The notes under the pieces: model-generated | The model's database searches: none | Told to the model about the DNA's origin: nothing | The model's input: the letters and a program-made list of their open reading frames with translations, nothing else | Shown: piece by piece, positions 1,867-63,247 of the stretch | How positions within the stretch are numbered: the stretch's first letter is position 1 | How the letters are laid out: every line of letters begins with the position of its first letter | DNA from: Dehalococcoidales bacterium | Lineage (GTDB): Bacteria > Chloroflexota > Dehalococcoidia > Dehalococcoidales > BS750m-G39 | DNA length: 64,000 bases | NCBI GenBank assembly: GCA_034419075.1 | Contig: DAOULR010000004.1 | Location: forward strand, 42,511-106,510 | Direction of reading: 5' to 3' | Translations under genes and position numbers: made by a program

Positions 1867-1890
1867 ACATGCTATAAACGTCAGCATGAG

Positions 1891-1991
1891 CGCTCTCCTT
1901 TCCAAACACGGGAGGCACCGCCGTTTCCAACGATACCCTATCGGCCTGCACCCCCTGGCTAAGGCTTTAGGATGAGCAGGCTCGGAGAGAG
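1891..1991 (-). promoter_or_regulatory. Moco/Tuco (molybdenum/tungsten cofactor) riboswitch-like aptamer in the tupA leader
   Basis: Minus-strand RNA CUCUCUCCGAGCCUGC...GCAGGCCGAUAGGGUAUCG...GGUGCCUCCCGUGUUUGGAAAGGAGAG. P1 is CUCUCC/GGAGAG. Nested stems GCCUGC/GCAGGC and CGAUA/UAUCG. CCGAGCC and GCCUCCC boxes match my memory of the Moco RNA motif. Context is upstream of a W/Mo transporter. Confidence 0.6.
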
Positions 1992-2012
1992 TATTTAGTT
2001 TTTCAGTTGAGT

Positions 2013-2042
2013 ATATTATCACATCGGTTGGGGGGTAATCAA
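2013..2042 (-). promoter_or_regulatory. Putative promoter of the riboswitch-tupABC unit
   Basis: Minus strand has an extended -10 TGaTAATAT (2013-2021) and a weak -35 TTGATT (2037-2042, 18-nt spacer). The -35 spans the junction with the MITE-like element. Confidence 0.35.
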
Positions 2043-2264
2043 CCCCACCCCGCCATGGCGAACGTTGGTTTTTCGTCCCAACCCTGCCTCCGCCGGAGCG
2101 GCTACGCGCAGGCAGGCCTGCCCGCCCTAATGAGTAAACTCCTTAACCTGTGGGGATACGCCCCGCCACCCTACTTGCAGGGGTTTTTAAGGGGGACGCA
2201 GTCCCCCTTTACCTTAAAAGGGCGGCGGGTGGGTATAGATAAAATCGGGGTGGGGTGGTAATCA
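2034..2264. mobile_element. MITE-like palindromic element, copy A (215 bp, 2042-2256) with target-site duplication
   Basis: Perfect 11-bp terminal inverted repeats ACCCCACCCCG (2042-2052) and CGGGGTGGGGT (2246-2256). They are directly abutted by identical 8-mers GGTAATCA (2034-2041 and 2257-2264). Internal G5-loop-C5 hairpins. No coding capacity. Confidence 0.75.
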
Positions 2265-2319
2265 TTAGTTGCGCCGGAAAGAAAGAGGGGGATTAAAGGG
2301 GATTTTCCTCATCATTGCC

Positions 2320-2349
2320 TTGACGCTAAGGGAAGCGCTCTGCTAAAAT
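2320..2349 (+). promoter_or_regulatory. Sigma70-type promoter for the crotonase/hbd/thiolase block
   Basis: TTGACG, 18-nt spacer, TAAAAT, about 60 nt upstream of the 2410 start. Confidence 0.5.
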
Positions 2350-2409: not shown

Positions 2410-3180
2410 ATGGCAGTTGACTACAAGAAGGAAGGCCGGATCGCTATCTTCACCATCAACCGCCCCGAGGCACTGAATGCACTGAATGTTGAGGCGGTAG
2501 AAGAGTTTCACGAGGCACTGTTAGACTTCAGGGATGACCCTGAACTATGGGTCGGTATCGTTACTGGCGCTGGGGAGCGGGCTTTTTGCGCTGGCGCCGA
2601 TATAAAGGACTGGCTACCGTTCAACAAGGCGCATCGTTATGAACCTTGGTCGGCCACGCCGTCAATAATGCGGGGATTTGATATATGGAAGCCGCTTATT
2701 GCCGCTATCAATGGCCTCGCTTTAGGCGGGGGGTTGGAAATGGCCCTGGCTTGCGATATAAGAATAGCCGCGGATAATGCTCGCTTGGGCACACCTGAGG
2801 TAACTCTGGGTCTGATACCTCTCTGGGGAGGGACACAGAGACTGCCCCGAATGGTTCCTTGGTGTAAGGCGGCTGAGATACTGCTCATGGGAAAACCAGT
2901 AGACGCTCAGGAGGCCTACCGCATCGGCCTGGTGAACAAGGTGGTGCCTCAGGCCGAGGTTTTGTCCACGGCCAAGGAGTGGGCTGAGGCCATCTGCCAG
3001 GCAGGACCTCTGGCAGTTAGAGCGGCTAAAGAGGCTATGATTAGTGGTTATAACCTGACCTTGGAAGATGGCTTAAGGCTGGAGAACTCCCTTGGCGCTT
3101 ACCTCTATGGCACCGAGGACTTCACCGAGGGCACCGCGGCTTTCGTTGAGAAGAGGAAGCCGAACTACAAGGCAAAATAA
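2410..3180 (+). CDS. Enoyl-CoA hydratase (crotonase family)
   Basis: 256 aa. Crotonase-fold motifs GAGERAFCAGADIK and GLALGGGLEMALACDIR. Confidence 0.85.
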   Translation: MAVDYKKEGRIAIFTINRPEALNALNVEAVEEFHEALLDFRDDPELWVGIVTGAGERAFCAGADIKDWLPFNKAHRYEPWSATPSIMRGFDIWKPLIAAINGLALGGGLEMALACDIRIAADNARLGTPEVTLGLIPLWGGTQRLPRMVPWCKAAEILLMGKPVDAQEAYRIGLVNKVVPQAEVLSTAKEWAEAICQAGPLAVRAAKEAMISGYNLTLEDGLRLENSLGAYLYGTEDFTEGTAAFVEKRKPNYKAK

Positions 3181-5555: not shown

Positions 5556-5619
5556 GGCATCCCCGATTTCTGTATAGAATATAGCAGATAGAGTGCTATT
5601 TGGCAACGATTAATTTGGC

Positions 5620-5657
5620 TAAGACAAAGAGGCTGCACCTGAATAAGGTACAGCCTC
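5620..5657 (-). terminator. Intrinsic terminator after the 5681-6013 gene
   Basis: Hairpin GAGGCUGUACC-UUAUUCA-GGUGCAGCCUC followed by UUUGUCUU on the minus strand. Confidence 0.5.
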
Positions 5658-5680
5658 CTATTTAATCCAATACGGTCTGG

Positions 5681-6013
5681 TTATCCGGGTGGTCCGGGCA
5701 TCATTTTTTCCGCCATCTTGAAGCCCTCGATAAGGGTCTTCATTGCCGAGAAGCCTTCACTCAGCGGATAAACCTCGAAATTCGCGTAGTTGAGTATAGG
5801 TACAGCGCCTTGGTTTTTAACCCATTCTTCGGCATTTTTCTGTTCAAGGATAACCACACTACAGCCCGCGGGTGAATAGTAAAATTCTAAGAGTTCACCT
5901 GCTTTCCTCTGCTGCTCCAAGGCAGCCACGCTCACCTCCATTATCTGTCTGGCTACAGCTGGCGGAAGTGCTGATGCCGTGTCCTTCATTTTGGCTATGA
6001 CCAGGAATTTCAT
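5681..6013 (-). CDS. Hypothetical small alpha/beta protein (110 aa)
   Basis: Start chosen at ATG 6011-6013 behind AAGGAG RBS (MKFLVIAKMKD...). The track ORF to 6130 adds an implausible leader. Somewhat AT-richer than neighbours. No motif recognised. Confidence 0.5.
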   Translation of the reverse strand: MKFLVIAKMKDTASALPPAVARQIMEVSVAALEQQRKAGELLEFYYSPAGCSVVILEQKNAEEWVKNQGAVPILNYANFEVYPLSEGFSAMKTLIEGFKMAEKMMPGPPG

Positions 6014-6311
6014 TTTTCTCCTTTGGTTATAAGAATTTATTAGTGGCTGAGGTTGGTATTTGTTTTTAACTGGCATCACCTCCTTTGCCGCAAGTCTAGA
6101 TAAACAAAAAGGCACCAGCGACCACCACATTTTCTTCTGGCGGTTACCAGTGCTCTTTTCATCGGCCTCTATTGTTCCTTAAGGCTGGTTTATTTAAGGA
6201 GGATTTCATTATACCATTCGCTACGGCATTGTCAATGCTTTGAATTCAAGGTATTCCTCTATGTGCGCAATTGTGGTAGAATAGGGCGGTATTCTAGCGG
6301 GGGATAGTATT

Positions 6312-24238: not shown

Positions 24239-24485
24239 CCCCACCCCTTGTTTGGCGAATGTGTGATTTTCCTACCCAACCTCCCCACTCTGTCGGCGTA
24301 CGTTGTTCTGACCCGCCCTGCCCACCCAACAGAAGTCTTTCTAAGAGGGGGCAAAGCCCCCTCTTAAACTCCCCCAAGGTAAAGAAGCTATGAACGTGAC
24401 CCTTGAAGGGGGATATCTAAGGGGCACCACCCTTGTAGGGTGGGTATTGGGTGGGAAAGAAAGACGTACGCTAAACAGGGGGTAG
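24239..24485. repeat. MITE-like palindromic element, copy B (~247 bp)
   Basis: Left terminus is CCCCACCCCTTGTTTGGCG. The right arm (24408-24485) is the reverse complement of the arm seen at 25805 and 53667. Internal GGGGGCAAAGCCCCC hairpin. No clear TSD. Confidence 0.65.
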
Positions 24486-24492
24486 CGCTTCC

Positions 24493-25737
24493 TTAATCAT
24501 CAATGCCGGGCACGGGGAAGCGGGCGCACATCTCGGCGACTTCTTGTGCCGCCTTTTTCTGCACACCAGCATCGTCGATGTGGCTGATTACATCAATAAC
24601 CAGCGCGGCAATCTTTTTCATTTCTTCTTTGCCGAAACCGCGCGTGGTCACGGCGGGGGTGCCTAAGCGTATGCCGCCGGTGATGCGGGGCGGGTTGGGG
24701 TCGAAGGGGACGGTGTTGCGGTTGACCACGATGCCCACTTTGCCTAAAGCTTCCTCAGCCTGCTTACCGGTGACGCCCGTTTCGGCCAGGTCGACCAGCA
24801 CCATGTGGTTATCGGTGCCGCCCGAGACGAGGCGCAGGCCGTTCTGTTGCAGCCCCGCCGCCAGCGCTTTAGCGTTATCCAGCACCGCCCGCTGGTAGTC
24901 GGTAAAGGCGGGCTGCATCGCCTCGTGGAAGCAGACCGCCTTGGCGGCGATAACCTGCATCAGGGGGCCACCCTGCATGCGGGGGAAAACGCCGTCGTCA
25001 ACAGCCGCGGCGTAGTCTTTCCAGGAGAGGATAAAGCCACTCCTCGGCCCGCGCAGCGTCTTGTGAGTCGTCGAGGTGACGACCTCGGCATAGGGGATGG
25101 GGGTGGGGTGTAGGCCCACCGCCACCAGCCCCGCGATGTGGGCCATATCCACCATCAGCTTTGCCCCCACCGAGTCGGCGATGTTCCGTAAGCGCTCGAA
25201 ATCTATAATCCGTGGGTAGGCGCTGGCTCCAGCCACAATCAGCTTGGGCTTGTGCTTTTTGGCCAGTTTTTCAATCTCTGGGTAGTCCATCCGCTCCGTT
25301 TCGCGGTTGACACCGTAGTGGATGAATTTATAGTCCTTGCCCGAAAAGCTGACCCTGTCGCCGTGGGTGAGGTGGCCGCCGTGGGCCAGGCTCATGCCCA
25401 TGACGGTGTCGCCGTGCTCCAGCAGGGCGTAGTAGGCCGCCATATTGGCTTGAGAGCCGCTGTGGGGCTGGACGTTGGCGTGGTCGGCGCGGAACAATTC
25501 TTTAGCCCGCTCGGTGGCCAGTTTTTCCAGGAGGTCCATATTTTCGCAGCCACCGTAGTAACGCTGGCTGGGGTAGCCTTCAGCGTATTTGTTGGTCAGG
25601 AAGGTGCCTTCGGCCTGCATGACCGCACGGCTGGCGTAGTTTTCCGAGGCGATGAGGTTGATGGTCTCTTTCTGGCGTTTGCCTTCAAGGGCGATGACAC
25701 GGCTGATTTCGGGGTCGACTTTGCCTAAAGAATCCAT
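24493..25737 (-). CDS. glyA: Serine hydroxymethyltransferase
   Basis: Start at ATG 25735-25737 behind GAGGAGAA ([14 protein letters not shown]...). PLP-Lys motif [10 protein letters not shown]. The track start 25794 adds 19 unlikely residues. Confidence 0.93.
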
Positions 25738-25762
25738 GGCTTCTCCTCTTCTGCTTTGATAA

Positions 25763-25791
25763 AGTCTACAACTGCGGTTAGTTAGTGTCAA
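25763..25791 (-). promoter_or_regulatory. glyA promoter
   Basis: Minus strand TTGACA, 17-nt spacer, TAGACT, about 25 nt upstream of the glyA ATG. Confidence 0.55.
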
Positions 25792-25804
25792 CAAATAATT
25801 ATAG

Positions 25805-25889
25805 CCCCACCCCCACCTTGTTTAGCATACGTATTATCTTCCCACCCAATACCCACCCTATAAGGGGGTGTGCCCCTTATATATCCTCC
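25805..25889. repeat. Solo arm of the MITE-like element, copy C
   Basis: CCCCACCCCCACCTTGTTTAGCATACGT...CCCACCCAATACCCACCCTATAAGGGGGTGTGCCCCTTATATATCC. About 85% identical by eye to 53667-53745 and to the reverse complement of 24408-24485. Confidence 0.65.
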
Positions 25890-25936
25890 TTAGAGTTGCC
25901 CCACCTATTCCCTGATGGAGGCTGTAGTGCTATTAT

Positions 25937-26308
25937 ATGGGTATGAGTCACCGAAGAGGCAATAAAATAGTCCTTTTGGCAAGCACCCTGATAATAGTGT
26001 GTCTTTTTATGCCCGCCTTATTCATCTCATGCGAACCAGGCGGTGAACCTATAATTGAGAACCAGACCAGTCAAGATGTTAACATTTACATAATAGATGT
26101 TCTTAGTGATGGCACTTTGGGAGAAGCAATAGATTACGGAGTCATTTTAGCCCATAGTACCAAGCAGATAGCTAGTATCATCTTTATAAAACCCGAATGG
26201 GTGTATAGAATTCAAGCAAAAGATCCATCAGGTAAAGTCGTGTTTTCGCATGATTACAATTATTATGACCTCGAAGAGATATCTTGGAGGATAACGATAC
26301 CGCCATAG
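25937..26308 (+). CDS. Orphan putative lipoprotein (123 aa), AT-rich
   Basis: Signal/lipobox-like LFISC after a hydrophobic segment. No recognisable domain. Composition clearly AT-richer than its flanks. Confidence 0.5.
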   Translation: MGMSHRRGNKIVLLASTLIIVCLFMPALFISCEPGGEPIIENQTSQDVNIYIIDVLSDGTLGEAIDYGVILAHSTKQIASIIFIKPEWVYRIQAKDPSGKVVFSHDYNYYDLEEISWRITIPP

Positions 26309-26369
26309 GCTCTGTCCCCCCAGTGAAAAGTTTGCCAGCCGAAGGCCGCTCCCGCCCCAAAATTTTCAA

Positions 26370-26398
26370 TTGACTTGACATATTGCCCGTGCTATCAT
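26370..26398 (+). promoter_or_regulatory. Promoter for udg-rnj-ftsK string
   Basis: TTGACT, 17-nt spacer, TATCAT, 13 nt before the first candidate start. Confidence 0.5.
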
Positions 26399-26411
26399 AA
26401 TTAAAAGGCTG

Positions 26412-27011
26412 GTGAGTATGTCGGCTCTCAGTGAGCTAAATAAAGAGATTGCGCTTTGCCAGCAGTGTGAAATAGCTAAATATCGAAATAGGGTGGTGCC
26501 TGGAGAAGGGGCGGAGGCTGCCGATATCATGTTTATTGGTGAGGCGCCTGGCTGGCACGAAGACCAGCAGGGGCGACCTTTCGTGGGGCCGGCGGGGAAA
26601 TACCTCGACGAACTGCTAGCAACCATCGGACTGAAGCGGGCACAGGTTTACATCGCCAACGTGATAAAGTGCCGTCCTCAGGGGAACCGAGACCCCTTGC
26701 CCATGGAAATCCAGAATTGCCGCTTATGGCTGGAACGCCAGATTGAGATTATCAGTCCCAGGATGATTGTCACCTTAGGGCGTTACTCCATGGCCATGTT
26801 CTTCCCCGGCAAGAGCATCAGCAAGATTCACGGCACCGTGCAGAAGCGGGATGACGTGCTCTATTACGCCATGTATCACCCCGCGGCGGCCTTACATCAA
26901 GGCAGCCTGCGCCAGGAGATAGAGACGGATATGCTCAAGATACCGACACTGCTCAAACAGTCAGAGACAATTAAGGAGGAAAAACCACCAGAGCAGTTAA
27001 CCATGTTCTAG
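26412..27011 (+). CDS. udg: Family-4 uracil-DNA glycosylase
   Basis: 199 aa (GTG 26412 or ATG 26418). Motif A GEAPG (FIGEAPGWHEDQQGRPFVGPAG), Cys cluster CQQC, motif B HPAA. Confidence 0.85.
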   Translation: MSMSALSELNKEIALCQQCEIAKYRNRVVPGEGAEAADIMFIGEAPGWHEDQQGRPFVGPAGKYLDELLATIGLKRAQVYIANVIKCRPQGNRDPLPMEIQNCRLWLERQIEIISPRMIVTLGRYSMAMFFPGKSISKIHGTVQKRDDVLYYAMYHPAAALHQGSLRQEIETDMLKIPTLLKQSETIKEEKPPEQLTMF

Positions 27012-32061: not shown

Positions 32062-32802
32062 TTACTTTGGTTTTGTGTTAGAAGAATTAAATTGGACTAA
32101 TGCATTCCAATTTATTGCACCGTTAGTTACAAATTTATCACTGAACTCGGATGTAAATCTATTCACTATTTGAGCATATTCTTTGTAAAACTCCGAGTTC
32201 CTCTGTTTAGCCGAATGTCCGAGAGGCTCAATTATCTTTAGGTATAAATCGGGATTACCGGAAATGAACTCCCAGAACGTTTGACCACAATATTTAAAAT
32301 AATCACCTTTGTCAGGTTTTGAATCCCGTCCATAACAACATCCGTTCACAGATACTATATGTATGTTAGAATTGCTAGTGCGGAGGGTCTTCTGTGCCTT
32401 TCGGAAATCTTCTTTCATTTTTCTGATCTGGCTGCTATTACCCCAGTTTGGTCCTGACTTAATCGCTATGATGAAACGGGTCCTGTCCTTATCGAATTCT
32501 AAATCTATGCCTTGTGCGGACGATTTCCAGCCACCATATACTTTTTTATTTATGAAAATGGCCAATCCTTCGAGGAAATCCCCAAATATAGTCTCCTCCT
32601 GTGAGGATAAGTAAGCGTCAAGTAGGATTCTAACTAGGTCTTGAGCAAGCAGTATATTTTTTGCTTTGAATAGATACGGGTTTTTCCTCCGTAGCACAGT
32701 ATTGAGTTTTAGTTTCTTAATACTTTCCAACCTAGCTTTGTGAAAGCTACCAATATTCCCTTTTACGTATTCGCTAACCTCTGTTATTTCAATAGAGCCC
32801 AT
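32062..32802 (-). CDS. Putative type II restriction endonuclease (246 aa)
   Basis: Immediately downstream of, and overlapping (19 nt), a DNA methyltransferase gene in a strongly AT-rich islet. No catalytic motif confidently assigned. Family not recognised from memory. Confidence 0.55.
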   Translation of the reverse strand: MGSIEITEVSEYVKGNIGSFHKARLESIKKLKLNTVLRRKNPYLFKAKNILLAQDLVRILLDAYLSSQEETIFGDFLEGLAIFINKKVYGGWKSSAQGIDLEFDKDRTRFIIAIKSGPNWGNSSQIRKMKEDFRKAQKTLRTSNSNIHIVSVNGCCYGRDSKPDKGDYFKYCGQTFWEFISGNPDLYLKIIEPLGHSAKQRNSEFYKEYAQIVNRFTSEFSDKFVTNGAINWNALVQFNSSNTKPK

Positions 32803-33656
32803 GAGTCCATTTTCCTGGCTTTGACGTTATTTTTTGTCTCCCAGATTTCAATCGAGTCCTGCGCTAATTGGTAGTAGTTATCCATTGTTTCTATGCCAAT
32901 GTAGTGTCTCTTTAGATTCAAACAGGCGATTGCAGTTGTTCCTGAGCCTATAAATGGATCAAGTACTACATCATCTTCCTTGGTAAATAATTTTATAAAC
33001 CAGGTGGGTAGAGATATGGGAAAAGAAGCACTATGCCCACGGTTAGCGCACTCTGTAGGAAGATGTAACACATTGGTAGGATAAACATACTTTTTCCCAA
33101 GCCAATTTGAGATATTTTTACCAAAGCCACTGCCGACTTTGGATTCGTCTCTTATGAGATCTGTTGCGCTAAGTTTAGATAGTCTCTTTTTACTCCAATT
33201 ACCTATTGGAACCATGACGGCTTCTTGGTACATATTAAATTTCTTCTGCTTATTGAATTGTAAGCATCTTTCCCACGCATCTCTGAAACGGTTAGGCCAT
33301 TTCCCAGGATAGCAGTTTTTCTTATGCCAGATATATTCTTCTGTCCAGAGCCAACCTTGTTTTTTCATTTCAAGTATTAACTCAAGTACATATGTCTGGC
33401 GTTCGCCATTTTCTGCCCTTTCTTTAATGTTTAGGATAAAAGTGCCGTCATTTTTTAGGACGCGTTTTAACTCTGAAGATATTGGTAAAAACCAGTTTAC
33501 ATAGTTCTTAATTGGGATCCCTTTATATGTTTTTTTCCGATTGTCGGCGTAAGGTGGCGATGTGAATATGAGGTCAACACATGAGTTTGGAAGTGTTTTT
33601 AATTGTTCGAGAGAATTGCCCTTTAAAATGCTGTCTAGTTCAAACATTGTTGACAA
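32784..33656 (-). CDS. Beta-class DNA amino-methyltransferase (N4-cytosine or N6-adenine)
   Basis: 290 aa. Motif IV FTSPPYA near the N-terminus and motif I DPFIGSGTT near the C-terminus (beta permutation). SPPY favours N4-cytosine specificity. Confidence 0.85.
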   Translation of the reverse strand: MSTMFELDSILKGNSLEQLKTLPNSCVDLIFTSPPYADNRKKTYKGIPIKNYVNWFLPISSELKRVLKNDGTFILNIKERAENGERQTYVLELILEMKKQGWLWTEEYIWHKKNCYPGKWPNRFRDAWERCLQFNKQKKFNMYQEAVMVPIGNWSKKRLSKLSATDLIRDESKVGSGFGKNISNWLGKKYVYPTNVLHLPTECANRGHSASFPISLPTWFIKLFTKEDDVVLDPFIGSGTTAIACLNLKRHYIGIETMDNYYQLAQDSIEIWETKNNVKARKMDSWALLK

Positions 33657-40241: not shown

Positions 40242-40607
40242 TCATTTCGTATCGCCAATGGCGATGGCGATAGCGTATTCCTTGGAGTGGGAGAGGCTGA
40301 CGGTAAGATTTTCTAAGCCCAGCGCTTTGGCTTGGTTTTGTGCCTCGCCGTAGAGGTTGACCAGGGGTTTACTCTTATCGTCAGCCAGTATCTCGATGTC
40401 TTTGAGGCTAGCGCCCGCCGTCGGTTTGCCCAGTGCCTTTATCACCGCTTCCTTGGCGGCGAAGCGCGCCGCCAGCGAGGGCAGCTTCCAGCGGTAGGCT
40501 TTTATCTCGGCGCCGGTGTAAATCCGCTGGAGGAAGGCTTCTCCCTGGCGGGCGATGGCCGCTTTTATACGGGCGATTTCAATTATATCAACGCCGATAG
40601 CGTGCAT
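40242..40607 (-). CDS. acpS: Holo-[acyl-carrier-protein] synthase
   Basis: 121 aa. GVDIIEIARI start and FAAKEAVIKA motif. Confidence 0.88.
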   Translation of the reverse strand: MHAIGVDIIEIARIKAAIARQGEAFLQRIYTGAEIKAYRWKLPSLAARFAAKEAVIKALGKPTAGASLKDIEILADDKSKPLVNLYGEAQNQAKALGLENLTVSLSHSKEYAIAIAIGDTK

Positions 40608-40666: not shown

Positions 40667-40874
40667 CCCCACCCCCGGGTCTTTTTACCCACACCAGACC
40701 GCCCACAAAGGTCTTTCAAAGGGGGGCTACGCCCCCCTTAAGAACCTCCCAAAAATCTTTGGAACTGGCGTTTGTTTTGATTCCTCAACCGTCTGGGGGT
40801 TTGAAAGGGGGCTTTGCCCCTTTCTACCTTAAAAGGGTGGTGGGTGGGAATAGATAAAATCGGGGTGGGAGGGG
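40667..40874. repeat. MITE-like palindromic element, copy D (~208 bp)
   Basis: Left CCCCACCCCCGGG... with hairpin GGGGGGCTACGCCCCCC. Right arm GGGGGTTTGAAAGGGGGCTTTGCCCCTTTCTACCTTAAAAGGGTGGTGGGTGGGAATAGATAAAATCGGGGTGGGAGGGG. Only a partial flank match (ATTT). Confidence 0.65.
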
Positions 40875-41934: not shown

Positions 41935-41970
41935 ATGCCATAGGGAGATAGAACAGCCTGGGAGAGAGAA

Positions 41971-43176
41971 ATGAAGCAAGCAGTTAAGGTAGTCGTTTTT
42001 CTGGTGATTCTGGCATTGATTATGGTGCCGCTGGCGGCCTGCGACCTGGAGCAGGATGGGCAGGTGGCGCAGGTGGAGCAGGGTCCAGCAGGGCCACAGG
42101 GGCCGGCAGGGCCAGCGGGTCCAGCGGGGCCAAGAGGATCGCAGGGTCCAGCGGGGCCACAGGGACCGCAGGGAGAGCCAGGGCCAGCGGGGCCTCAGGG
42201 ACCAGCGGGGGCGCAGGGAGCCATCGGGCCACAGGGTGCCACTGGGCTAATGGGACCTCCAGGTCCAGCGGGAGAGGCAGGGGCGGCGGGGACTTCGTTG
42301 AACCCGATGCAGATTGCCCTGCTGCGGTGGTGGGAAGCCAATGAGACGGGCATAACCTACAGCGTGGGCGCGAGCACCAACCCCGTGGGCATCTGCTTCG
42401 ACGGCGAGAACATCTGGACCGCCAATAATGCCAGTGCTAATGTGACCAAGCTTAAAGCCATCGACGGCACCGAGTGTGCCGGCAGTCCCTACGCTGTGGG
42501 TAATGCCCCCAACGGTATATGCTTCGACGGGAAATACATCTGGACTGCCAATTACGCCAGCAATAATGTAACCAAGCTCCTGGCCAGCGACGGCAGCTTG
42601 GTCGGCACCTATCCCGTCACCGAACCCCTGGCCATCTGCTTCGACGGCGCTAACATCTGGGTCACCCAATACTCCAGCACTAATGTCCACAAGCTGAGAC
42701 CCAGCGACGGTGTTGTGCTGGGTACCTATACTGTGGGCTACGACCCCTATGGAATCTGCTTCGACGGCGAGAACATCTGGGTCTCTGGTAACGGCCCTGA
42801 CACGGTAACCAAGCTTAGAGCCAGCGACGGTGCTTGGCTCGGCACCTACAATGTGGGCGACTCTCCCCACGACATATGTTTCGACGGGGAGAACATCTGG
42901 GTAACCAATCAAGTAGACGGCACAGTGACCAAGCTGAGAGCCAGCGACGGCAGCTTGGTCGGCACCTACAATGTGGGCACCAATCCCATGTACATCTGCT
43001 TCGACGGTGAGAACATCTGGGTAGTTAACCACAACGACAATACGGTAACCAAGCTGAAAGCCAGCGACGGTAGCCCGGTCGGCACCTACAACGTCGGTAC
43101 TAACCCTCACGGCATCTGCTTCGATGGTGCCAATATCTGGGTTACTAATAGCGATGGTACGGTAAGCAAGCTCTAG
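41971..43176 (+). CDS. Collagen-like lipoprotein with C-terminal seven-blade beta-propeller (NHL/Vgb-like repeats)
   Basis: 401 aa. Lipobox signal MVPLAAC. 23 Gly-X-Y triplets (nt ~42082-42291). Seven ~40-aa repeats P..ICFDG.NIWV.N....VTKL.ASDGS.VGTYNVG. Confidence 0.85.
42376..43173 (+). repeat. Seven tandem ~120-bp coding repeats (propeller blades)
   Basis: ATCTGCTTCGACGG..A.ATCTGG recurs at 42391, 42517, 42634, 42754, 42874, 42994 and 43114 (spacing 126, 117, 120, 120, 120, 120). Confidence 0.85.
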
Positions 43177-43200
43177 GAGGGATTTGAGAGAAAGTCAACC

Positions 43201-43230
43201 GAGAGCCAGGGTTTTTAGGCCCTGGCTCTC
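43201..43230. terminator. Hairpin terminator between convergent genes
   Basis: GAGAGCCAGGG-TTTTTAG-GCCCTGGCTCTC: perfect 11-12-bp stem. Confidence 0.6.
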
Positions 43231-43274
43231 AGCTTATTCGGTTTTGATTTAGGGCCGCTTGATTAACAGGCGGT

Positions 43275-44126
43275 TTATTCTTTGCTGCGGACGGCCTTAA
43301 CGACTCCGGTCGCCACCAGGGCCGCGCCCACGACTATGGCAATCCAGAAGCCATAGACCGATAGCCAAAGTATGAGGCTGCGATTGCCTTGGGCATCATC
43401 AACCAGCTCGTCTATGGTATCGTCGTCGAAGACTATGCTGGAAATATAGTAGGGCATCTTGGTTTCGGGCCCGACGACCATACTGTAGGTCGAATTGCTC
43501 ATGGTGTAAACGGTGGTACCGGTTACCGGCTCCACCTTCAGGCTGATGTCTATGTCCAAAACCTGAGGGATACCGGTCCCTTCCTGGGCGCCAATGTCCA
43601 GGTCCTGCTCGCTGATGGCGAAGTCGTAGACGGTCAGGCCGTGGAATTCTTCTTCACCGGTAAAGGCGGCTTCCAGGGGACGCCCGGCACTGAGAATCCA
43701 TATGGAGTAGCTTTCCTTTTCTAAATCGGAAGGGAAGCAGAACTGGCCGCTACGTGGCATACCATCAGCTTGGTTGGCCACAAACGCCCGGGTAGAGCGG
43801 TCAACACTCATCTCCCCATAGGCACCAAAATCGGGCAGTTCCATGCCAGCCAGGGCGTGGGTGCAGGTAACCGTCTCACTGATGGTGAGCACGTTGTCCT
43901 GGACGCCCATTGCATCTTGCAATCGCTGTACGAGCACCGGAATTTCGTCCAGCGTTTGGGTATCGGGGTTGAGCACGTAATAGGTGCCCTCGAAGTTGAT
44001 GTCTCTGTGGTGGTCTGCGGGGATTTTGACCATGCCGGGGAAGATGGCCAACAGCCAGACCAGGGCGAAAACGACCAGGACCAGACCAATGACGGTCAGG
44101 CTCAGGCTCCCACCTTTCATTCTCAT
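43275..44126 (-). CDS. DUF3068-like membrane-anchored protein
   Basis: 283 aa, N- and C-terminal TM helices flanking a large extracytoplasmic domain. N-terminal pattern (FPGMVKIPADHHRDINFEGTY) recalled from DUF3068. Assignment tentative. Confidence 0.5.
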   Translation of the reverse strand: MRMKGGSLSLTVIGLVLVVFALVWLLAIFPGMVKIPADHHRDINFEGTYYVLNPDTQTLDEIPVLVQRLQDAMGVQDNVLTISETVTCTHALAGMELPDFGAYGEMSVDRSTRAFVANQADGMPRSGQFCFPSDLEKESYSIWILSAGRPLEAAFTGEEEFHGLTVYDFAISEQDLDIGAQEGTGIPQVLDIDISLKVEPVTGTTVYTMSNSTYSMVVGPETKMPYYISSIVFDDDTIDELVDDAQGNRSLILWLSVYGFWIAIVVGAALVATGVVKAVRSKE

Positions 44127-44177
44127 TGCGATAAACCTCCTTACGTTTACCTAGCGTTAATAGGTATATAGTGGAGC

Positions 44178-44206
44178 ATTATACAGTGCAGATGAAACTT
44201 TTGCAA
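44178..44206 (-). promoter_or_regulatory. Promoter of the DUF3068-like gene
   Basis: Minus strand TTGCAA, 17-nt spacer, TATAAT. Confidence 0.55.
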
Positions 44207-44285
44207 TAGTTAGCTTTAAAGAGGTGGAGTTATATGGAGTTAAATAACGTCAGCTTTGGTGAGTTACCGTGACCCTGGCGATGTC

Positions 44286-45266
44286 TTAAAGGTGGAGCTC
44301 GATAATATCGCCGTCCTTTAAGATATGGTCGCGTCTGGCCATGACGCCGTCGTGCTTGGCCGAGCCCCAGATGCGGGCGTACTTCATCTTAGCGCGGAAG
44401 TCCTTGTGCACCGCTTCGGCGGCGTCGGCCAGGGTGCTGCCCTTCTTCAGGATGATGGGGTCGTTGGGGTCGGGCTTTTTGCCGGGGGCCTTGGTGTAGA
44501 CGCGGATGATATCTAATACTTCGTAGATTTTGCCCCTAAGCTCCTCTAATCCCGCGCCCTCGGTGGCGGAGATGGCGATGAGGGGGAAACGCTTGCCGTA
44601 TTCGGTCTTCAGAATCGCGAAATTACGCCCGTCTGTGTCCAAATCGCTCTTGTTGCCGACGACGAGCGCCTTCTGGTGCCAGACGGTGAACTCGGGGTCT
44701 AATTCGGTATCACCTTCGCCAATCAATATCCTCATCTTCTTGAGCTGCTCGGTGACGGCCTGCATCTGCTCCAGCGGTTCGGCGCTCAAATCAATAATGA
44801 CGAGCAGGGCGTCGGCTCTTCGGAGCAGCGGCGGCATCCAGAACTCGGTAGTCTGGGGGGCGAGGGGTGGGGTATCGATGAGCTGAATCTTGATGTTCTC
44901 GAACTCCATCATGCCGGGGAGGGCCTGGTGGGTGGTGAAGGGATAGTCGGCGACGGGCGGGGAGGCATTGGTGATAGCGGCCACGATTTGAGACTTGCCC
45001 GCGTTGGGCAGGCCAGCCAGCGCCAGCTGGGCAGCGCCTTCCTTTTCGATAACCAAAGATGCCCGCCGTGCGCCGCTCTTCTTGGCGGCCTGCTGACTGA
45101 GCTTGGCGATGCGACCTCTCAGCTCGGCGCGGAGGTGGTCGGTGCCCTTGTGCTTGGGCATGATGGCCAGCATCTCTTCCAGGGCGGCTATCTTTTCCAG
45201 GGGGTCTTTGGCCTCCCGGAAGGCCTTTTCGGCCTCGAAGTATTGCGGCGGCAGGTTAGCCGGCAT
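44286..45266 (-). CDS. DRG/Rbg1-like OBG-family GTPase with C-terminal TGS domain
   Basis: 326 aa. G1 GLPNAGKSQ, G3 DTPP, G4 NKSD. C-terminal TGS-like IRVYTKAPGKKPD...ARIWGSAKHDG...LKDGDIIELH. Confidence 0.8.
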   Translation of the reverse strand: MPANLPPQYFEAEKAFREAKDPLEKIAALEEMLAIMPKHKGTDHLRAELRGRIAKLSQQAAKKSGARRASLVIEKEGAAQLALAGLPNAGKSQIVAAITNASPPVADYPFTTHQALPGMMEFENIKIQLIDTPPLAPQTTEFWMPPLLRRADALLVIIDLSAEPLEQMQAVTEQLKKMRILIGEGDTELDPEFTVWHQKALVVGNKSDLDTDGRNFAILKTEYGKRFPLIAISATEGAGLEELRGKIYEVLDIIRVYTKAPGKKPDPNDPIILKKGSTLADAAEAVHKDFRAKMKYARIWGSAKHDGVMARRDHILKDGDIIELHL

Positions 45267-45269
45267 TTT

Positions 45270-47087
45270 CTAGAGATACTCCTTTATCTTTTGCGCTAGA
45301 CTCTCCGTTATCCTACTGACTTTAGCCAGCTCTTCAACGCTGGCTTCACGTATACCTTTTAGCGAGCCGAAATGACGAATTAAGGCCTTCTTACGCTTGG
45401 CGCCGATACCGGGGACGCTATCCAGTACCGAGGCAAAGCTCTCCCTTTTTCTTATTCTATGATGATAACCGAGGGCAAAGCGGTGAGCCTCGTCCCTAAG
45501 ACGCTGCAACAGCTGCAGTCCGGGGGAGGAGGGGGGCAAAACGATGGGCTTGGCCCGGCCGGGGATAAAAAGCTCCTCGTTTTCCTTGGTCAGCCCGGCG
45601 GCGGGGATGGCCTCGGCTCCCATTTCCCGCATCGCTTTGATGGCGGCGCTTAGCTGCCCCTTGCCGCCGTCGATGAGCACCATGTCGGGCTTAATCGCCC
45701 ATGTTCCCGAAGCGGCCTCCGCCCGTTTGAAGCGCCTTTTGAGTACCTCGGCGAGCATGGCGTAGTCGTCGGCGCCGCTAACGCTCTTTATCTTGAAACG
45801 TCGGTAGTGCGCTGGCTTGGGTTTGCCCTTGTCGAAGACGACCATGCTGCCCACCGCCGCCATTCCCTGAATATCGGAAATATCATAGCCCTCGATGCGG
45901 TCGGGGGAGTGGGGGAGGTTAAGCTCTTCCTTAATCTCCGCTAGTGCTGCCGAAAGCGCTTTGGGAGAAGCCAGCTGCTTTATCTTCAACTGCTCCAGAC
46001 CCTGTTTGGCATTCTGGGCCACGATATCTACTAATTGCTTTTTGTTGCCCCGTTGTGGCACCTGAATCTTGACGGCGCCGCCCCGCTTGTCGGAAAGCCA
46101 CTTTTGCAGGGTGTCCTTATCCTCCACCGGGTGCTGGAGTAAAAGTAGGGGAGGGATGTGGGGGGCGGAAGAATAAAACTGCTGGATAAAACTTGACATA
46201 ATACTATTCGGCTCTTCGTGGCGGGTGCCCTGGAGGACAAAGCTTTCACGGCCTATCAATTTGCCGTTGCGGATGAAAAACACCTGGACGTAAGCCCGGT
46301 CCCTCTCGGCGCTGAAGGCGATGACGTCCTGCTCACCTCTCGTCTTAGTGGCGATGCGCTGACCCTCGACCACCGCCTCCACCGCCTGAATCTGGTCGCG
46401 GAGGCGGGCGGCTTTCTCAAAGTCCATATTTTCCGCCGCCTGATTCATCCTGTTTTCCAGCTGCTTAACCACCTTCTCCTGCTTGCCCTCAAGAAAGAGG
46501 ATGACTTGCTTGATGAGCTCGTCGTATTCGGTACGGCTGACCTTACCGATGCAGGGGGCCAGGCAGTGGCCAATGTCGTATTGGAGGCAGGCTCTGGGGT
46601 CGTCTCCGCTAATCTGGCGGGTGCAGGAGCGGAAGGGGAAGATGCCTTTTAGCAGCTTTAGGGTCTGGCGTATTGACTTGGCGCTGGCGAAGGGACCGAA
46701 ATAGCGCCCGCCGTTTTCCACCAGTTTTCGGGTGATGTGGACACGGGGCCAGTCTTCGCCCAAGTCTATCTTGAGGTAGGGGAAGGTCTTATCGTCCCTG
46801 AGGCGGGCGTTGTAGCGAGGGTGGTGCTGCTTGATAAGGTTCAGCTCCAGGATCAGGGCTTCCTGCTCCGAGGCGGTGACGAAGTACTCCAGGTCTTTGA
46901 CCTGACTCACCATGCGCCGAGTTTTGGGTGTCAACTTTTGCTCGGAGCCGAAGTAGGAGCTTACCCGATGGCGCAGGCTGGCGGCTTTGCCTACATAGAT
47001 GATGTTGCCCTCGGCGTCTTTGAAGAGGTAGACACCGGGGGTGGGTGGTAGCCCTTTTATCTGTTCCGTAATATAGCTGGTCGTCAT
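45270..47087 (-). CDS. uvrC: Excinuclease ABC subunit C
   Basis: 605 aa. GIY-YIG (GVYLFKDAEGNIIYVGKA), UVR domain, C-terminal HhH pair. Confidence 0.93.
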   Translation of the reverse strand: MTTSYITEQIKGLPPTPGVYLFKDAEGNIIYVGKAASLRHRVSSYFGSEQKLTPKTRRMVSQVKDLEYFVTASEQEALILELNLIKQHHPRYNARLRDDKTFPYLKIDLGEDWPRVHITRKLVENGGRYFGPFASAKSIRQTLKLLKGIFPFRSCTRQISGDDPRACLQYDIGHCLAPCIGKVSRTEYDELIKQVILFLEGKQEKVVKQLENRMNQAAENMDFEKAARLRDQIQAVEAVVEGQRIATKTRGEQDVIAFSAERDRAYVQVFFIRNGKLIGRESFVLQGTRHEEPNSIMSSFIQQFYSSAPHIPPLLLLQHPVEDKDTLQKWLSDKRGGAVKIQVPQRGNKKQLVDIVAQNAKQGLEQLKIKQLASPKALSAALAEIKEELNLPHSPDRIEGYDISDIQGMAAVGSMVVFDKGKPKPAHYRRFKIKSVSGADDYAMLAEVLKRRFKRAEAASGTWAIKPDMVLIDGGKGQLSAAIKAMREMGAEAIPAAGLTKENEELFIPGRAKPIVLPPSSPGLQLLQRLRDEAHRFALGYHHRIRKRESFASVLDSVPGIGAKRKKALIRHFGSLKGIREASVEELAKVSRITESLAQKIKEYL

Positions 47088-47161
47088 ACCGATTTATTTT
47101 AGCATAGCCTGTGAGCGGGGCAAAGTTTGGGAGGGTTAGTCCGGAAAAGGGGTAAAAATCG

Positions 47162-47190
47162 TTGACGCTGGCTATGTTCGTTGCTATAAT
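47162..47190 (+). promoter_or_regulatory. Strong sigma70-type promoter of the collagen-like triplet
   Basis: TTGACG, 17-nt spacer, TATAAT, 43 nt before the ATG at 47233. Confidence 0.65.
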
Positions 47191-47232
47191 CCCAGCAGCG
47201 TGTTTGTATTTAGAGACGGCTAAGGAGGCGAG

Positions 47233-48027
47233 ATGAAGCGAGCGAGCAAGATAATCGTCTTTTTGTTAGTTATCGCCTTAGTCCTGGTGCCGCTGACGGC
47301 CTGCGAGCTGTCGGTAGGACCGCAGGGAGAGCCGGGGCCGCAGGGGGCAGCGGGACCGCAGGGAGAAGAAGGGCCACCGGGGCCTCGGGGCCGAACGGGC
47401 GAGCCAGGGCCGGCGGGTCCGGCAGGGGCGGCGGGGCCACAGGGAGAGCAGGGGCCAGCGGGGCCGGCGGGATCACAGGGGCCGCAGGGCAGCCCGGGGG
47501 TGGAGGGGCCGCAGATAGTGGCTACCTGGGCGAATGTGGCGACGAAAGGGTCCGGCGGCGAGTTCGGCGATTTCAGCATGGAGTCCCCTTATTCGGGGCC
47601 GTTTGCAATAACCGATGTTACCGTGTGGGCCTACGGGGAGGGAAGCTATCCGCCGCCTTACGGGCCGGCCTGGGTGCGGATTAAAGGCTCGGGCTTCGAC
47701 CCCGGGGCTATAGTGACCTTGACCATCTGTGAGGACGATTACGTCCTCGACCTGTATATCGCAGATTACGTGGTCGGTGACGGCATACCGCTTGACGATA
47801 TCCCTGACTACATAGTCGCTAACGAATGCGGCGCCTTCGAGGTTTTCACCTACATGCCCGATATCTGGCCGGAGCTGGGTGCGCAGACTGCGGTGGTCCA
47901 CACCTCGGTGAAGGCTTACGTTAGCGGCATACTGCAGGCTTCCTGGGCGTTAGAAGTCTGGGATTTCAGTTCATTTGATGAGGCTTCTTACAATCACTTG
48001 ATGATGCTGATGGATGGGGAAGGCTAA
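47233..48027 (+). CDS. Collagen-like lipoprotein paralog 1 (264 aa)
   Basis: Lipobox VPLTAC. 22 Gly-X-Y triplets (47317-47514). Neck [10 protein letters not shown]. Conserved core [12 protein letters not shown]...LTICEDD...[17 protein letters not shown]...[17 protein letters not shown]. Confidence 0.85.
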
Positions 48028-48059
48028 CCCTGTTAATGAGGAACCTGAGGATTGTTTAA

Positions 48060-48830
<771 letters not shown>

Positions 48831-48857
48831 TCTTTTAGGATTGTTTAAGGAGGCGAG

Positions 48858-49649
48858 ATGAAGCGAGCGAGCAAGATAATCGTCTTTCTGGTTATGATAG
48901 CCTTAATTCTGGTGCTGCTGGCGGCATGCCAGGGGCCGCGGGGGCCGCAGGGCGAGACGGGGCCGGTGGGGCCGACGGGGCCGATAGGCGACACGGGGCC
49001 GCAGGGGCCTCCGGGTCGAGCCGGTGAGACGGGGCCGCAGGGCGACCCGGGGCTGGCGGGGCCGGCGGGGCCCCAGGGGGAGGTGGGGCCGGTAGGGGAG
49101 CAGGGTCTGCCCGGCGACCAGGGACCGCAGATAGCGGCTACTTGGGCCAATATTTGGTGGGATGACCAGGCTTATATGTATCTTTTAATCGACCGCGTCA
49201 TCGGCCCCTTCGATATCGTGGACGTTACCGTCAGGGATTATGATTTCAGCGAACCCCAGACGGGGATTCACCCTAGCTGGGCATGCTGGGTGCGGATTAA
49301 GGGCTCGGGCTTCAATCCCGGAGAGATGGTGGTGCTGACTATCTGTGAAAGCGACACTGTCCTCAACCTCTATAGCTACGATTACAATATCGACGATGGT
49401 TACCTGACCGATATTGCCGACTTAATCACCGCCGACGAATGCGGCGCCTTCGAGGTCTTCACCTACATGCCCAATATCTGGCCGGAGCTGGTTACCGACC
49501 AGGAGGGCTATGCGGTGGTGGAACACACCGCGGTGAAGGCCTACGTCGACGGCGTGCTGCAGGCTTCCTGGCCGTTGGACGTCTGGAACGACGCAATCGG
49601 AGCCTTTGATTGGGATATCTACTACTACCTGTTAGACATTATAATGTAA
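48858..49649 (+). CDS. Collagen-like lipoprotein paralog 3 (263 aa)
   Basis: Lipobox LLAAC. 22 triplets (48933-49130). Same neck and core motifs ([39 protein letters not shown]). Confidence 0.85.
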
Positions 49650-49708
49650 AAACAGCCGATGACGGCGTTTTTTGCGGCGCTTCCCCTAAAGGAGGCGCCG
49701 AATTTTTT
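49648..49708 (+). terminator. Two stacked intrinsic terminators after the collagen-like triplet
   Basis: AAAACAGCCG-ATGA-CGGCGTTTTTT, then GGCGCTTCC-CCTAAA-GGAGGCGCC followed by GAATTTTTT. Confidence 0.6.
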
Positions 49709-49777: not shown

Positions 49778-50686
49778 GTGAAAGAAGCGGTTGATAACTT
49801 CCTGGACTACCTGGCGGTGGAGAAGGGCTTTTCGGCCAACACCATAGCCGCCTACCGTAACGACCTGCACCAGCTGGCCAGCTACATCGAGGAAGAGGCG
49901 GCCAAGCGGGGCACCATTCCACCCTGGGTGGCTTTCGACCGTCAGGCGATGATGAGCTACCTGCTCGACCTTAAGGGGCGGGGCTATGCCGCCGCCACCG
50001 TCGCCCGCAAGGTCGCCGCCGTCAAGTCCTTCTTCGGCTTCATGGTCGCCGAGGGGATGATGAAGGATAACCCCACCGAGGGGGTGGCTTCCTCTAAGGT
50101 GGGCAAATCGCTGCCCAAGCCGATTTCCATAGCCCAGGTGCACAAGCTCTTAGAGCAGCCAGCCAAGCAGGGCGGCTCCGAAGCCAAGCGGGATAGCGCC
50201 ATGCTGGAACTGCTCTACGCCACCGGCATGAGGGTTAGCGAGCTGGTCTCCCTGAACCTGGCTGATCTGGATACCGAAGGCGGCTACGTGCGCTGTTTCG
50301 GCAAGGGGCATAAAGAGAGGCTTATCCCCGTCCACGAACGGGCGGTTAAAGCGGTAAAGGAATACCTGAAAGAGGTGAGGCCAAGGCTGGGGCGGGGTGG
50401 GGACGAAAAAGCGGTCTTCTTAAACCGCCGCGGCGAGAGGCTGACGCGGCAGGGTTTGTGGCAGATACTTAAGGGCTACGCCAAAGCCGCTGAGCTGGGC
50501 ACGGAGATTACCCCCCATACGCTGCGGCACAGCTTTGCCACCCATATGCTGGGGGGCGGTGCCGACCTGAGGTCGGTGCAGGAGCTTTTGGGACACGCTA
50601 ATATCTCCACCACCCAGGTCTATACCCACCTCACCACCGAGCACGTCCGCCGCGCTTACCAGAAATCTCACCCTAGGGCTAAATAG
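49778..50686 (+). CDS. xerD: XerC/XerD-type tyrosine recombinase
   Basis: 302 aa, GTG start. N-terminal SAM-like domain (FLDYLAVEKGFSANTIAAYRNDL). Catalytic region ...ATGMRVSEL..., HTLRHSFATHML, LGHANISTTQVYTH. Confidence 0.85.
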   Translation: MKEAVDNFLDYLAVEKGFSANTIAAYRNDLHQLASYIEEEAAKRGTIPPWVAFDRQAMMSYLLDLKGRGYAAATVARKVAAVKSFFGFMVAEGMMKDNPTEGVASSKVGKSLPKPISIAQVHKLLEQPAKQGGSEAKRDSAMLELLYATGMRVSELVSLNLADLDTEGGYVRCFGKGHKERLIPVHERAVKAVKEYLKEVRPRLGRGGDEKAVFLNRRGERLTRQGLWQILKGYAKAAELGTEITPHTLRHSFATHMLGGGADLRSVQELLGHANISTTQVYTHLTTEHVRRAYQKSHPRAK

Positions 50687-53629: not shown

Positions 53630-53660
53630 ACTCCTTTTAGCTCCTTATTAAGGGGTAACA

Positions 53661-53855
53661 CCCACCACCCCACCTTGTTTAGCGTAAGTCTTTCTGTCCC
53701 ACCCAATACCCACCCTATAAGGGTGGTGCCCCTTATATATCCCCCTGTATATGTCTTACCCACCTTATTTGAGGGGGTTTGAAGGGGGGTTTTACCCCCT
53801 TTCTACCTTAAAAGGGTGGTGGGTGGGAAAAGATAGAAAACGGGGTGGGGTGGGG
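53661..53855. repeat. MITE-like palindromic element, copy E (chimeric arms)
   Basis: The left arm (53667-53745) matches copy C and the reverse complement of B-right. The right arm (53771-53855) matches the right arms of copies A and D, ending CGGGGTGGGGTGGGG. No matching flank duplication. Confidence 0.65.
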
Positions 53856-53865
53856 CAACGACAAC

Positions 53866-63185: not shown

Positions 63186-63247
63186 GGGGTGGGGGGTGCT
63201 CAAATTAAGAGTTATGCTCCACCTTGTTTGGCGAAGGTTGTTTTGTC
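63186..63247. repeat. Fragmentary termini of the MITE-like family, copy F
   Basis: GGGGTGGGGGG (63186-63196) and CTCCACCTTGTTTGGCGAAGGTTGTTTTGTC (63217-63247) resemble right and left termini of the family. No arms or hairpins retained. Confidence 0.4.

Follow-up and report, generated by a model that had tools for sequence, protein, structure and literature searches.

The Correia elements of Neisseria are bacterial MITEs. REP units measure 20-40 nt and are typically located in transcribed 3′ regions, and RAYT is the Y1 HUH transposase associated with REPs, while IS200/IS605-derived palindrome-associated elements have subterminal hairpins, no inverted-repeat requirement and a replication-related strand bias. 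The sequence of the Neisseria pilE G-quadruplex is G3TG3TTG3TG3. A role of this G-quadruplex in initiating pilin gene conversion has been described (PMC3547852, PMC13463697), as have GTAG- and CGTC-tagged REP repeats (PMC3733652). Here, we analyzed a 215-bp repeat, copy A, located in a 64,000-nucleotide stretch of a Dehalococcoidales contig (the whole stretch is referred to as the window), together with its relatives. The family to which it belongs mixes traits that are usually divided between MITEs and REP/BIME elements: some 8-bp duplications, modular hairpin arms, a probable replication-strand bias, G-quadruplex-type boxes and a core found in two phyla.

The elements show several of the features by which MITEs are recognized, being shorter than ~500 bp, non-coding and dispersed in several copies, with empty orthologous sites. 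Like Correia-type MITEs, they measure 150-250 bp, contain no ORF, have inverted ends and fold back, and many intergenic copies lie beside promoters, some with a flanking direct repeat and with no enzyme encoded nearby. In contrast to Correia-type MITEs, the ends here belong to two arm types (identical over ~11 nt in copy A), the arms are found solitary or exchanged, a duplication can be seen at 2 of the 40 elements scored, the orientation tracks GC skew, and a parent IS was not found for the family. With REP, BIME and REPIN repeats the family has in common an extragenic location, high copy number, hairpin units arranged in mosaics and inverted doublets, persistence at orthologous sites and, usually, no target duplication. 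It differs from them in that its units are 70-95 nt long with G/C-tract boxes, rather than 20-40 nt, its hairpins are of the AAGAGGGG or TATAAGGGG type without a GTAG or CGTC tag, divergent promoter spacers are favored, two copies have 8-bp repeats, and RAYT was not found. The likeness to IS200/IS605-derived elements lies in subterminal hairpins at both ends, no inverted-repeat requirement and an orientation bias with respect to replication; however, the hairpin flanks are inverted here (left C-rich, right G-rich), there is no conserved target tetranucleotide at the left flank, and neither TnpA nor TnpB was found. Finally, the G strand of the T1 inner box, GGGTGGG-N2-4-GGGTGGG, has the same tract and loop pattern as the pilE G-quadruplex and lies at sites of sequence replacement, whereas T2 arms are without the canonical motif; by analogy, the pilE-like pattern in T1 inner boxes may serve as a lead.

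The coordinates of copy A, its surroundings and the other copies are collected in Table 1. The first-pass annotation of this DNA had described copy A as ending in perfect inverted 11-mers, ACCCCACCCCG and CGGGGTGGGGT, with identical GGTAATCA octamers directly abutting both ends, and this was borne out. The inverted identity of the two ends breaks off after 11 nt, because the two arms of copy A are of different types; nhmmer arm matches within the element extend over 2058-2159 and 2181-2253. In the window, CCCCACCCC occurs 14 times (1.55 expected) and GGTAATCA five times (1.3 expected), two of these five being the flanks of copy A. The left repeat is present as GGTAATCA in L038 and as GGTAAGCA in L081 and L082 (related loci are numbered with the prefix L), and the right repeat is degenerate in the orthologues, reading GGCAATTA in L038 and GGCAAAAG in L082. 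A mini-hairpin splits the C-tract box of the left arm; L080 has the same arm without it, and similar mini-inserts also break the T2 arms of L033 and L082. Copy A is positioned exactly between two divergent -35 hexamers, those of the riboswitch promoter and of the enoyl-CoA hydratase promoter, and the position earlier given for the former, at the junction of octamer and terminal inverted repeat, was right.

Table 1. Features of the repeat family and its surroundings in the window (positions counted from the first letter of the window).
Feature	Position	Strand	Remarks
Moco/tungsten riboswitch	1879..1999	minus	sole Rfam match in the window
Riboswitch promoter, TTGATT-16-GATAAT	2042..2015	minus	consensus scan
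Left 8-bp direct repeat, GGTAATCA	2034..2041	.	overlaps -35 hexamer of the tungstate/Moco-riboswitch promoter
Copy A, T1-variant arm (~2042-2165) plus T2 arm (~2166-2256)	2042..2256	+	215 bp
Left terminal 11-mer of copy A, ACCCCACCCCG	2042..2052
Nested mini-hairpin insertion, CCTGCC...GGCAGG type	2089..2121	+	~33 nt; splits the left-arm C-tract box
T2 hairpin, AAGGGGGAC-GCA-GTCCCCCTT	2189..2209	.	followed by TA spacer
T2 core, CCTTAAAAGGGCGGCGGGTGGGTATAGATAA	2212..2242	+	31 nt
Outer terminal box, CGGGGTGGGGT	2246..2256	+	inverse of 2042-2052
Right 8-bp direct repeat, GGTAATCA	2257..2264	.
Remnant of older repeat module, GAGGGGGATTAAAGGGGATTTTCC type	2265..2320	.	between copy A and the hydratase promoter
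Enoyl-CoA hydratase promoter, TTGACG-18-TAAAAT	2320..2349	plus	consensus scan
Copy B, T1(+) fragment, T3(+), T1(-)	24239..24485	.	blastn, nhmmer
Canonical G-quadruplex motif, T1 type	24438..24455		on the G strand
Copy C, solo T1 arm	25805..25889	+	blastn, nhmmer
Canonical G-quadruplex motif, T1 type	25841..25858		on the G strand
Copy D, T3(+) plus T2(+)	40667..40874	.	nearly symmetric; blastn, nhmmer
Left flank of copy E, GGGGTAAC	53652..53659
Copy E, canonical T1+T2 element	53660..53851	+	blastn, nhmmer
Canonical G-quadruplex motif, T1 type	53698..53715		on the G strand
Right flank of copy E, GGGGCAAC	53852..53859
Copy F, G-box plus first ~30 nt of a T1 arm	63186..63247	.	deletion remnant

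Analysis with blastn and iterated nhmmer profiles showed that the family consists of mosaics of separable arms, each 70-95 nt long and built to one plan: an outer C4AC2-4 box, an AT-rich spacer, an inner CCCRCCC-N-CCCRCCC box and a GC hairpin. The T1 arm reads CCCCACC-TTGTTTAGCG...-CCCACCCAATACCCACCC-hairpin TATAAGGGG/CCCCTTATA and the T2 arm reads hairpin AAGAGGGGC/GCCCCTCTT-TA-CCTTAAAAGGGYGGYGGGTGGG-AAWAGATAAAATC-GGGGTGGGG; T3 is near an inverted T2, and a T1-variant makes up the left arm of copy A. The termini of the family are ACCCCACCCC... and ...GGGGTGGGGT. Beyond the terminal box the ends of the two arm types differ in sequence and spacing, though the box architecture is common to both, and in most arms the T2 core comes after a perfect hairpin and a TA spacer. 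In ~0.9 Mb of Dehalococcoidales loci plus the window, nhmmer identified 91 T1, 84 T2, 27 T3 and 14 T1-variant arms. A typical element pairs a T1-type arm with an inverted T2-type arm over 150-250 bp, and T1+T2, exemplified by copy E, is the commonest architecture (29 clusters); single arms and other combinations are frequent, with arms occurring alone, in direct pairs and in inverted pairs. When folded as single-stranded DNA, copies A, D and E are predicted to form long imperfect hairpins, at -49.5 kcal/mol (z = -2.3) for copy A and with z = -2.9 and -5.0 for copies D and E, respectively. The simple unit of terminal inverted repeats and target-site duplication first proposed did not hold, since T1, T2, T3 and other modules are separable and combined as mosaics, and what stood was a multi-copy, non-coding, palindrome-forming repeat family, as supported by blastn, nhmmer, motif excess and folding.

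The five further loci that had been listed for the window were found to be related to copy A and to one another at 70-89% identity in blastn, with nhmmer support in addition, and repeat finding gave 74 nt at 93% for the closest pair of arms. All six loci are intergenic, in agreement with the earlier description, and both the 31-nt T2 core and the T1 box occur three times in the window against an expectation of 0. Copy F is related to the family as proposed, but it is only the deletion remnant of an element of which the orthologous site in L071 keeps the full version of ~255 nt. At the site orthologous to copy E, the T2 arm is present in L015, L028, L002 and L026. A 26-nt match to copy A at 50385-50410, inside a XerC/D-type recombinase gene, was treated as coincidental.

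A metagenome scan with the hydratase protein provided 80 syntenic loci, and the search for empty sites advised in the first-pass annotation was run on the orthologous riboswitch-hydratase spacers among them, with empty sites found in many related contigs. The spacer from the riboswitch to the hydratase ATG measures 410 nt in the window versus 133-158 nt in the empty relatives, and no repeat is present in the spacers of L083, L084, L087, L089, L090, L096, L104, L132 and L148, empty alleles having two -35 hexamers ~10-15 nt apart (...TAAGCAACCCTTCTTGACGC...). In comparison to the empty allele, the window has in addition copy A, a second GGTAATCA and the 56-nt remnant at 2265-2320, to which nothing corresponds in the empty alleles and which looks like the alternative hairpin module of L003, L012, L019, L056, L063 and L066. 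The same short spacer has been filled with different repeats, independently, in the clade of the window and in L091, L093, L103 and L106. A direct comparison is offered by L103 and L104, whose flanks are ~99% identical: L103 has a 269-nt block with GGCAACCC at both edges, and GGCAACCC is single-copy in L104 opposite this block. Two other alleles that appear empty opposite filled sites are unclean, having 12-13 nt of unrelated filler. Judged from these alignments, copy A together with the older remnant is inserted DNA and not conserved RNA, because the orthologous spacers are empty in many relatives; a structured RNA conserved at orthologous sites of distant relatives, named earlier as the finding that would contradict a mobile element, was not seen, as the distant relatives are empty and no Rfam family was matched. 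The exact left boundary of copy A is uncertain because AACCC at its left edge resembles the ancestral empty-site sequence.

When orthologous sites were compared between sister genomes whose flanks are 83-90% identical, different arms or opposite orientations were seen at the same position. Site D holds T3+T2 in the window versus T1+T2 with an extra inverted T1 in L072, and differences in arms or orientation were also seen for L044 versus L047, L036 versus L070 and L050, and L048 versus L050. At site A, the left junction GGGTAA(T/G)CAACCCC(R)CCCC is common to the window, L038, L081 and L082, and the arms beyond it differ. L005 carries glyA, the gene separating copies B and C, in inverted form, and the breakpoints coincide with the outer repeat edges. 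The best-matching paralogues have one arm in common, not a whole element. These allele comparisons showed elements that were remodeled in place after insertion, with arms swapped, flipped, duplicated, interrupted by a mini-hairpin or deleted. Most of the large indels at syntenic loci are gene insertions, not element insertions, and look-ups with exact proteins for near-identical strains with fresh insertions returned only the sample SRR14802572 or nothing.

Flanking duplications were scored in several ways. When 79 right ends were scanned for exact matches, a repeat of at least 7 nt appeared at copy A only, and allowing mismatches and free boundaries did not bring out an overall excess of flanking repeats. 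When 40 elements were scored at the fixed geometry of copy A (8-mer, one base, terminal box ... terminal box, one base, 8-mer), copy A matched at 8/8 and copy E at 7/8 positions, where controls predict 0.02 elements out of 40 with at least 7 matches; the remaining 38 of the 40 looked like controls, with no duplication above the control level. The orthologues of copy A retain 5-6 of the 8 duplicated positions. The right GGTAATCA is followed by the older remnant and not by the ancestral continuation, so that explaining the duplication at copy A calls for an additional event beforehand. The 8-bp target-site duplication proposed as a transposition footprint is supported at copy A (8/8 against 0.02 expected), but not at 38 of the 40 elements, and a check of the other copies added one at copy E (7/8) that had been missed. 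Overall, an 8-bp duplication is statistically credible for copies A and E and is not general.

The elements encode nothing, and overlap with a long ORF was seen for only 8 of 111 clusters. They are found preferentially in divergent spacers, which hold 37 of the 69 clusters with two assignable neighbors compared to 70 of 360 intergenic gaps (Fisher p = 2.6e-8). Asymmetric T1-to-T2 elements are co-oriented with the local GC skew in 23 of 30 orthology groups (23:7, p = 0.005). The GC skew of the window probably reflects the replication strand, because it is positive throughout, whatever the gene direction. With respect to the boxes, CCC-N1-CCC-N2-4-CCC-N1-CCC is present in 76 of 91 T1 and 12 of 14 T1-variant arms, against 0.3 expected in shuffles, and the C3 tracts of the T1 inner boxes are conserved while their loops vary. 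Scanning for the canonical G-quadruplex motif (four G3 tracts, G3+ N1-7, loops of at most 7 nt) identified T1-type motifs in the window (Table 1) and none in the 84 T2 arms. The suggestion that the element ends are G-quadruplex-prone is thus kept, as potential predicted from sequence, for the T1-type inner boxes, but not for T2 arms nor for the ends of copy A, which fit the motif only with a 13-nt loop. Many canonical motifs also occur within genes of the G-skewed window and are not unique to the repeats.

An exact-pattern scan of the T2 core in one genome per species returned 79 loci, most of them from ~18 Dehalococcoidales/Dehalococcoidia MAG assemblies and several syntenic with the window at 78-90% identity; Logan contigs of run SRR14802572 match the window itself at 100% identity. 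The 31-nt core is also present in a few gut Clostridia MAGs (including JAFYOP01 and JAZUMK01), here as the inverted ends of ~190-nt palindromic repeats. In both groups a perfect hairpin stands before the core, mostly with a 2-nt TA spacer, and the stems are unrelated between the phyla, being of the AAGAGGGG type in Dehalococcoidales and of the TCTTCGCC or GCTTTTCC type in Clostridia. More distant Dehalococcoidia (L080-L159), sampled without reference to the element, have 0.49 arms per 10 kb, without the T2 core. A phage or plasmid origin was rejected, as viral contigs searched with the core pattern gave 0 matches and plasmids searched by blastn with the Clostridia-type arm gave none. A literature search on MITE, REP or hairpin repeats of Dehalococcoidia returned nothing relevant. 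The family is real and apparently undescribed, with no match among the known families tested.

A mobilizing enzyme was sought among ORFs of the window and in related loci. A Pfam scan of 18 window ORFs, including the genes adjacent to the repeats, contained no transposase, which agrees with what had been noted from the ORF list; these ORFs are mostly housekeeping (tungstate-binding protein, enoyl-CoA hydratase, PRPP synthetase, SHMT, ACPS, HAD hydrolase, YebC, EF-G and release factor). The scanned ORFs also comprise a XerC/D-type tyrosine recombinase at 49778-50686, and a low-GC restriction-modification island is also present in the window. Across ~0.96 Mb of related loci, the search for a recurrent transposase-like ORF gave none, and clustering of ORFs of at least 200 aa from the 79 loci gave recurrent families of a housekeeping kind (ABC ATPase, SDR, NuoN, RNase PH and others). 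The earlier proposal to look for a full-length IS was followed up, and neither the window nor the 0.96 Mb of loci yielded an autonomous IS sharing the termini. The only inverted pair of arms 0.6-4 kb apart, in L011, encloses an ordinary gene, and the spaces between cores in the Clostridia loci hold a lipoprotein gene and a Dus-like gene, so both were rejected as autonomous elements. Searching the same 0.96 Mb by tblastn for Y1/RAYT proteins, a weak test, gave nothing below E = 0.6.

The explanation we prefer, and to which we assign about an even chance, is that of a MITE-like, non-autonomous repeat family of an uncultured Dehalococcoidales clade, mobilized in trans, with copies later remodeled by recombination. 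A candidate trans-acting transposase would bind the terminal boxes and make 8-bp staggered cuts, leading to insertion and leaving GGTAATCA around copy A and the pair GGGGTAAC/GGGGCAAC around copy E; at site A, insertion would have placed the element just upstream of the riboswitch promoter's -35, without damage to either promoter. The T1-type and inverted T2-type arms would let the element fold back on itself, arms would be exchanged between copies through recombination or gene conversion, and cruciform- and G-quadruplex-prone sequences may help this exchange. Against the MITE-like model stand the missing transposase, the mostly missing duplications, the unclean empty alleles, the unlike ends, the many single arms and the GC-skew bias, of which a plain DDE-type cut-and-paste model gives no prediction. 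A REP/REPIN/BIME-like origin, unlikely in our estimate but a rival to be taken seriously, accounts better for arms that behave as modules, a hairpin conserved in shape, the missing duplications and the strand bias. A domesticated HUH enzyme (RAYT-like), or another structure-specific one, would here read the hairpin arms in single-stranded form, and inverted-arm doublets would spread without target duplication, the two 8-bp repeats being coincidence or by-products. Such an origin is consistent with the mosaic organization with arms alone or in alternating orientation, with the 38 of 40 elements lacking a duplication above control, with the 23:7 orientation ratio, as expected for insertion into one template strand, and with the single arm (74 nt, 93%) that the most similar paralogues have in common; the perfect hairpin, fixed at 2 nt from a conserved, single-strand-like motif and built on stems that are unrelated between the two phyla, suggests recognition of shape rather than of sequence. 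It does not account well for the repeats that flank copies A (8/8) and E (7/8) in one common geometry, where 0.02 would be expected, and the arms of 70-95 nt are longer than REPs, carry no GTAG or CGTC tag and lie mainly in divergent, presumably untranscribed spacers; tblastn of 0.96 Mb, a weak test, also gave no Y1-type gene.

The elements may alternatively be structural DNA useful to the host, with cruciform/G-quadruplex cassettes kept by selection as supercoil sinks, insulators or recombination hot spots. The excess of clusters in divergent spacers, the four C3 tracts kept in 76 of 91 T1 arms with varying loops (0.3 expected), the conservation of arms and T2 core at site E across orthologues where the neighboring spacer is not alignable, and the rearrangement breakpoints at element edges (the glyA inversion and the arm swaps) all fit this possibility, which we nevertheless regard as distinctly unlikely, given that many relatives function with empty sites, that copies are freely lost or truncated (L080; site F), and that conservation is estimated with a bias, because the initial loci were collected by exact core match; selfish spread and host benefit are, moreover, not mutually exclusive. 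That the repeats are a structured non-coding or cis-regulatory RNA, such as a terminator or leader, is highly improbable: the predicted folds are stable and a T2 arm has a weak, sub-threshold match to Clostridiales-2 RNA (22.7 bits against a gathering score of 58.6), but cmscan of the window, arm sub-regions and Clostridia loci found no Rfam family at threshold apart from the Moco riboswitch, copies lie mostly between divergent promoters and in both orientations, no T-run follows the hairpins, and the site is empty in relatives with the same riboswitch and promoters. An intrinsic terminator or outward promoter within T2 was likewise rejected, with no T-run after the hairpin and hexamers matching at only 4/6 and 4/6. 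A last and unlikely option is a new structure-dependent mobile or recombining module, in which a hairpin 2 nt from a G-tract motif would be read by shape on one replication strand and G-quadruplex-type boxes would initiate pilE-like gene conversion. If true, this would account for the 31-nt core shared with unrelated stems by Chloroflexota and Clostridia, and also for the co-orientation with GC skew and the arm-by-arm replacement at fixed sites.

Whether the MITE-like explanation or one based on structure applies, the mobilizing enzyme, once found, could reveal a new MITE-IS pair or a structure-specific mobilization route. Dehalococcoidales genomes are small, streamlined and mostly known from MAGs, and dense recombining repeats lie in their promoter spacers. 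These repeats explain assembly breaks, as in the Logan contig L160, which ends inside copy B, and they mark rearrangement breakpoints. They also call for care in annotating promoters and small ORFs, an example being the 84-aa ORF called at 2007-2261, which runs across copy A.

Rearrangement was found at the palindromic intergenic repeats when related loci were compared with the window. The gene for serine hydroxymethyltransferase that lies between repeat copies B and C (window 24493-25794) is inverted in L005, a contig of a related MAG, and this inversion has its breakpoints at the repeats' outer edges. A Logan contig from run SRR14802572 (L160), which corresponds to window 24346-26813, terminates within copy B; such an end of a short-read contig fits with assemblies being broken by the repeats.

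The window and its relatives also differ in blocks of sequence. L072 carries a 190-nt block of the T1 arm type (2965-3152) at the ACPS stop codon; in its place the window has 12 nucleotides of unrelated sequence (40243-40254), and because of this the ACPS proteins of the two loci end differently. With L080 and L082 as the reference, window 5611-6270 is a 659-nt insertion, flanked by CAACGATT and GTGGTAGAA; its small ORF had no match in Pfam. A low-GC island (about 41% GC) encoding a restriction-modification system is absent from the syntenic loci L011 and L018, and in L011 its position is occupied by an arm of the T2 type. L018 (JAUVYB010000007.1) carries the label of a Deltaproteobacteria MAG, but at 78-82% identity it is syntenic with the 27-36 kb part of the window, which points to mis-binning or mislabelling.

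Coordinates of coding and repeat features in the window
Feature	Position	Strand
Small ORF in the 659-nt insertion	5681-6130	minus
EcoO109I-like type II restriction endonuclease and N4/N6 DNA methylase (low-GC island)	within 32065-33656	
Tandem repeats, six of 120 nt	42375-43160	
Paralogous units, three of about 800 nt	47221-49650	
XerC/D-type tyrosine recombinase gene	49778-50686	

A second hairpin repeat family, distinct from that of copy A, was seen in L001, L011, L068, L073, L090, L091, L103 and L157. Its ends resemble TTATCWACCTCACCCCCTGTATCCCC, its hairpin is CCCCTCTCC/GGAGAGGGG, and it occupies some of the same spacers as the family of copy A, including that of the recent L103 insertion. 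A further hairpin, GATTGCTTCG...CGCAATGACA, adjoins the repeats in Dehalococcoidales MAGs (L002, L003, L026, L044, L055 and L063) and also in the Clostridia MAG loci L008, L045 and L069, and is a second module common to the phyla of Dehalococcoidales and Clostridia.

The coding region at window 41959-49650 contains internal repeats and numerous G-tract motifs. Within the XerC/D-type recombinase gene, a 26-nt match to the left arm of copy A (50385-50410) appears to be coincidental.
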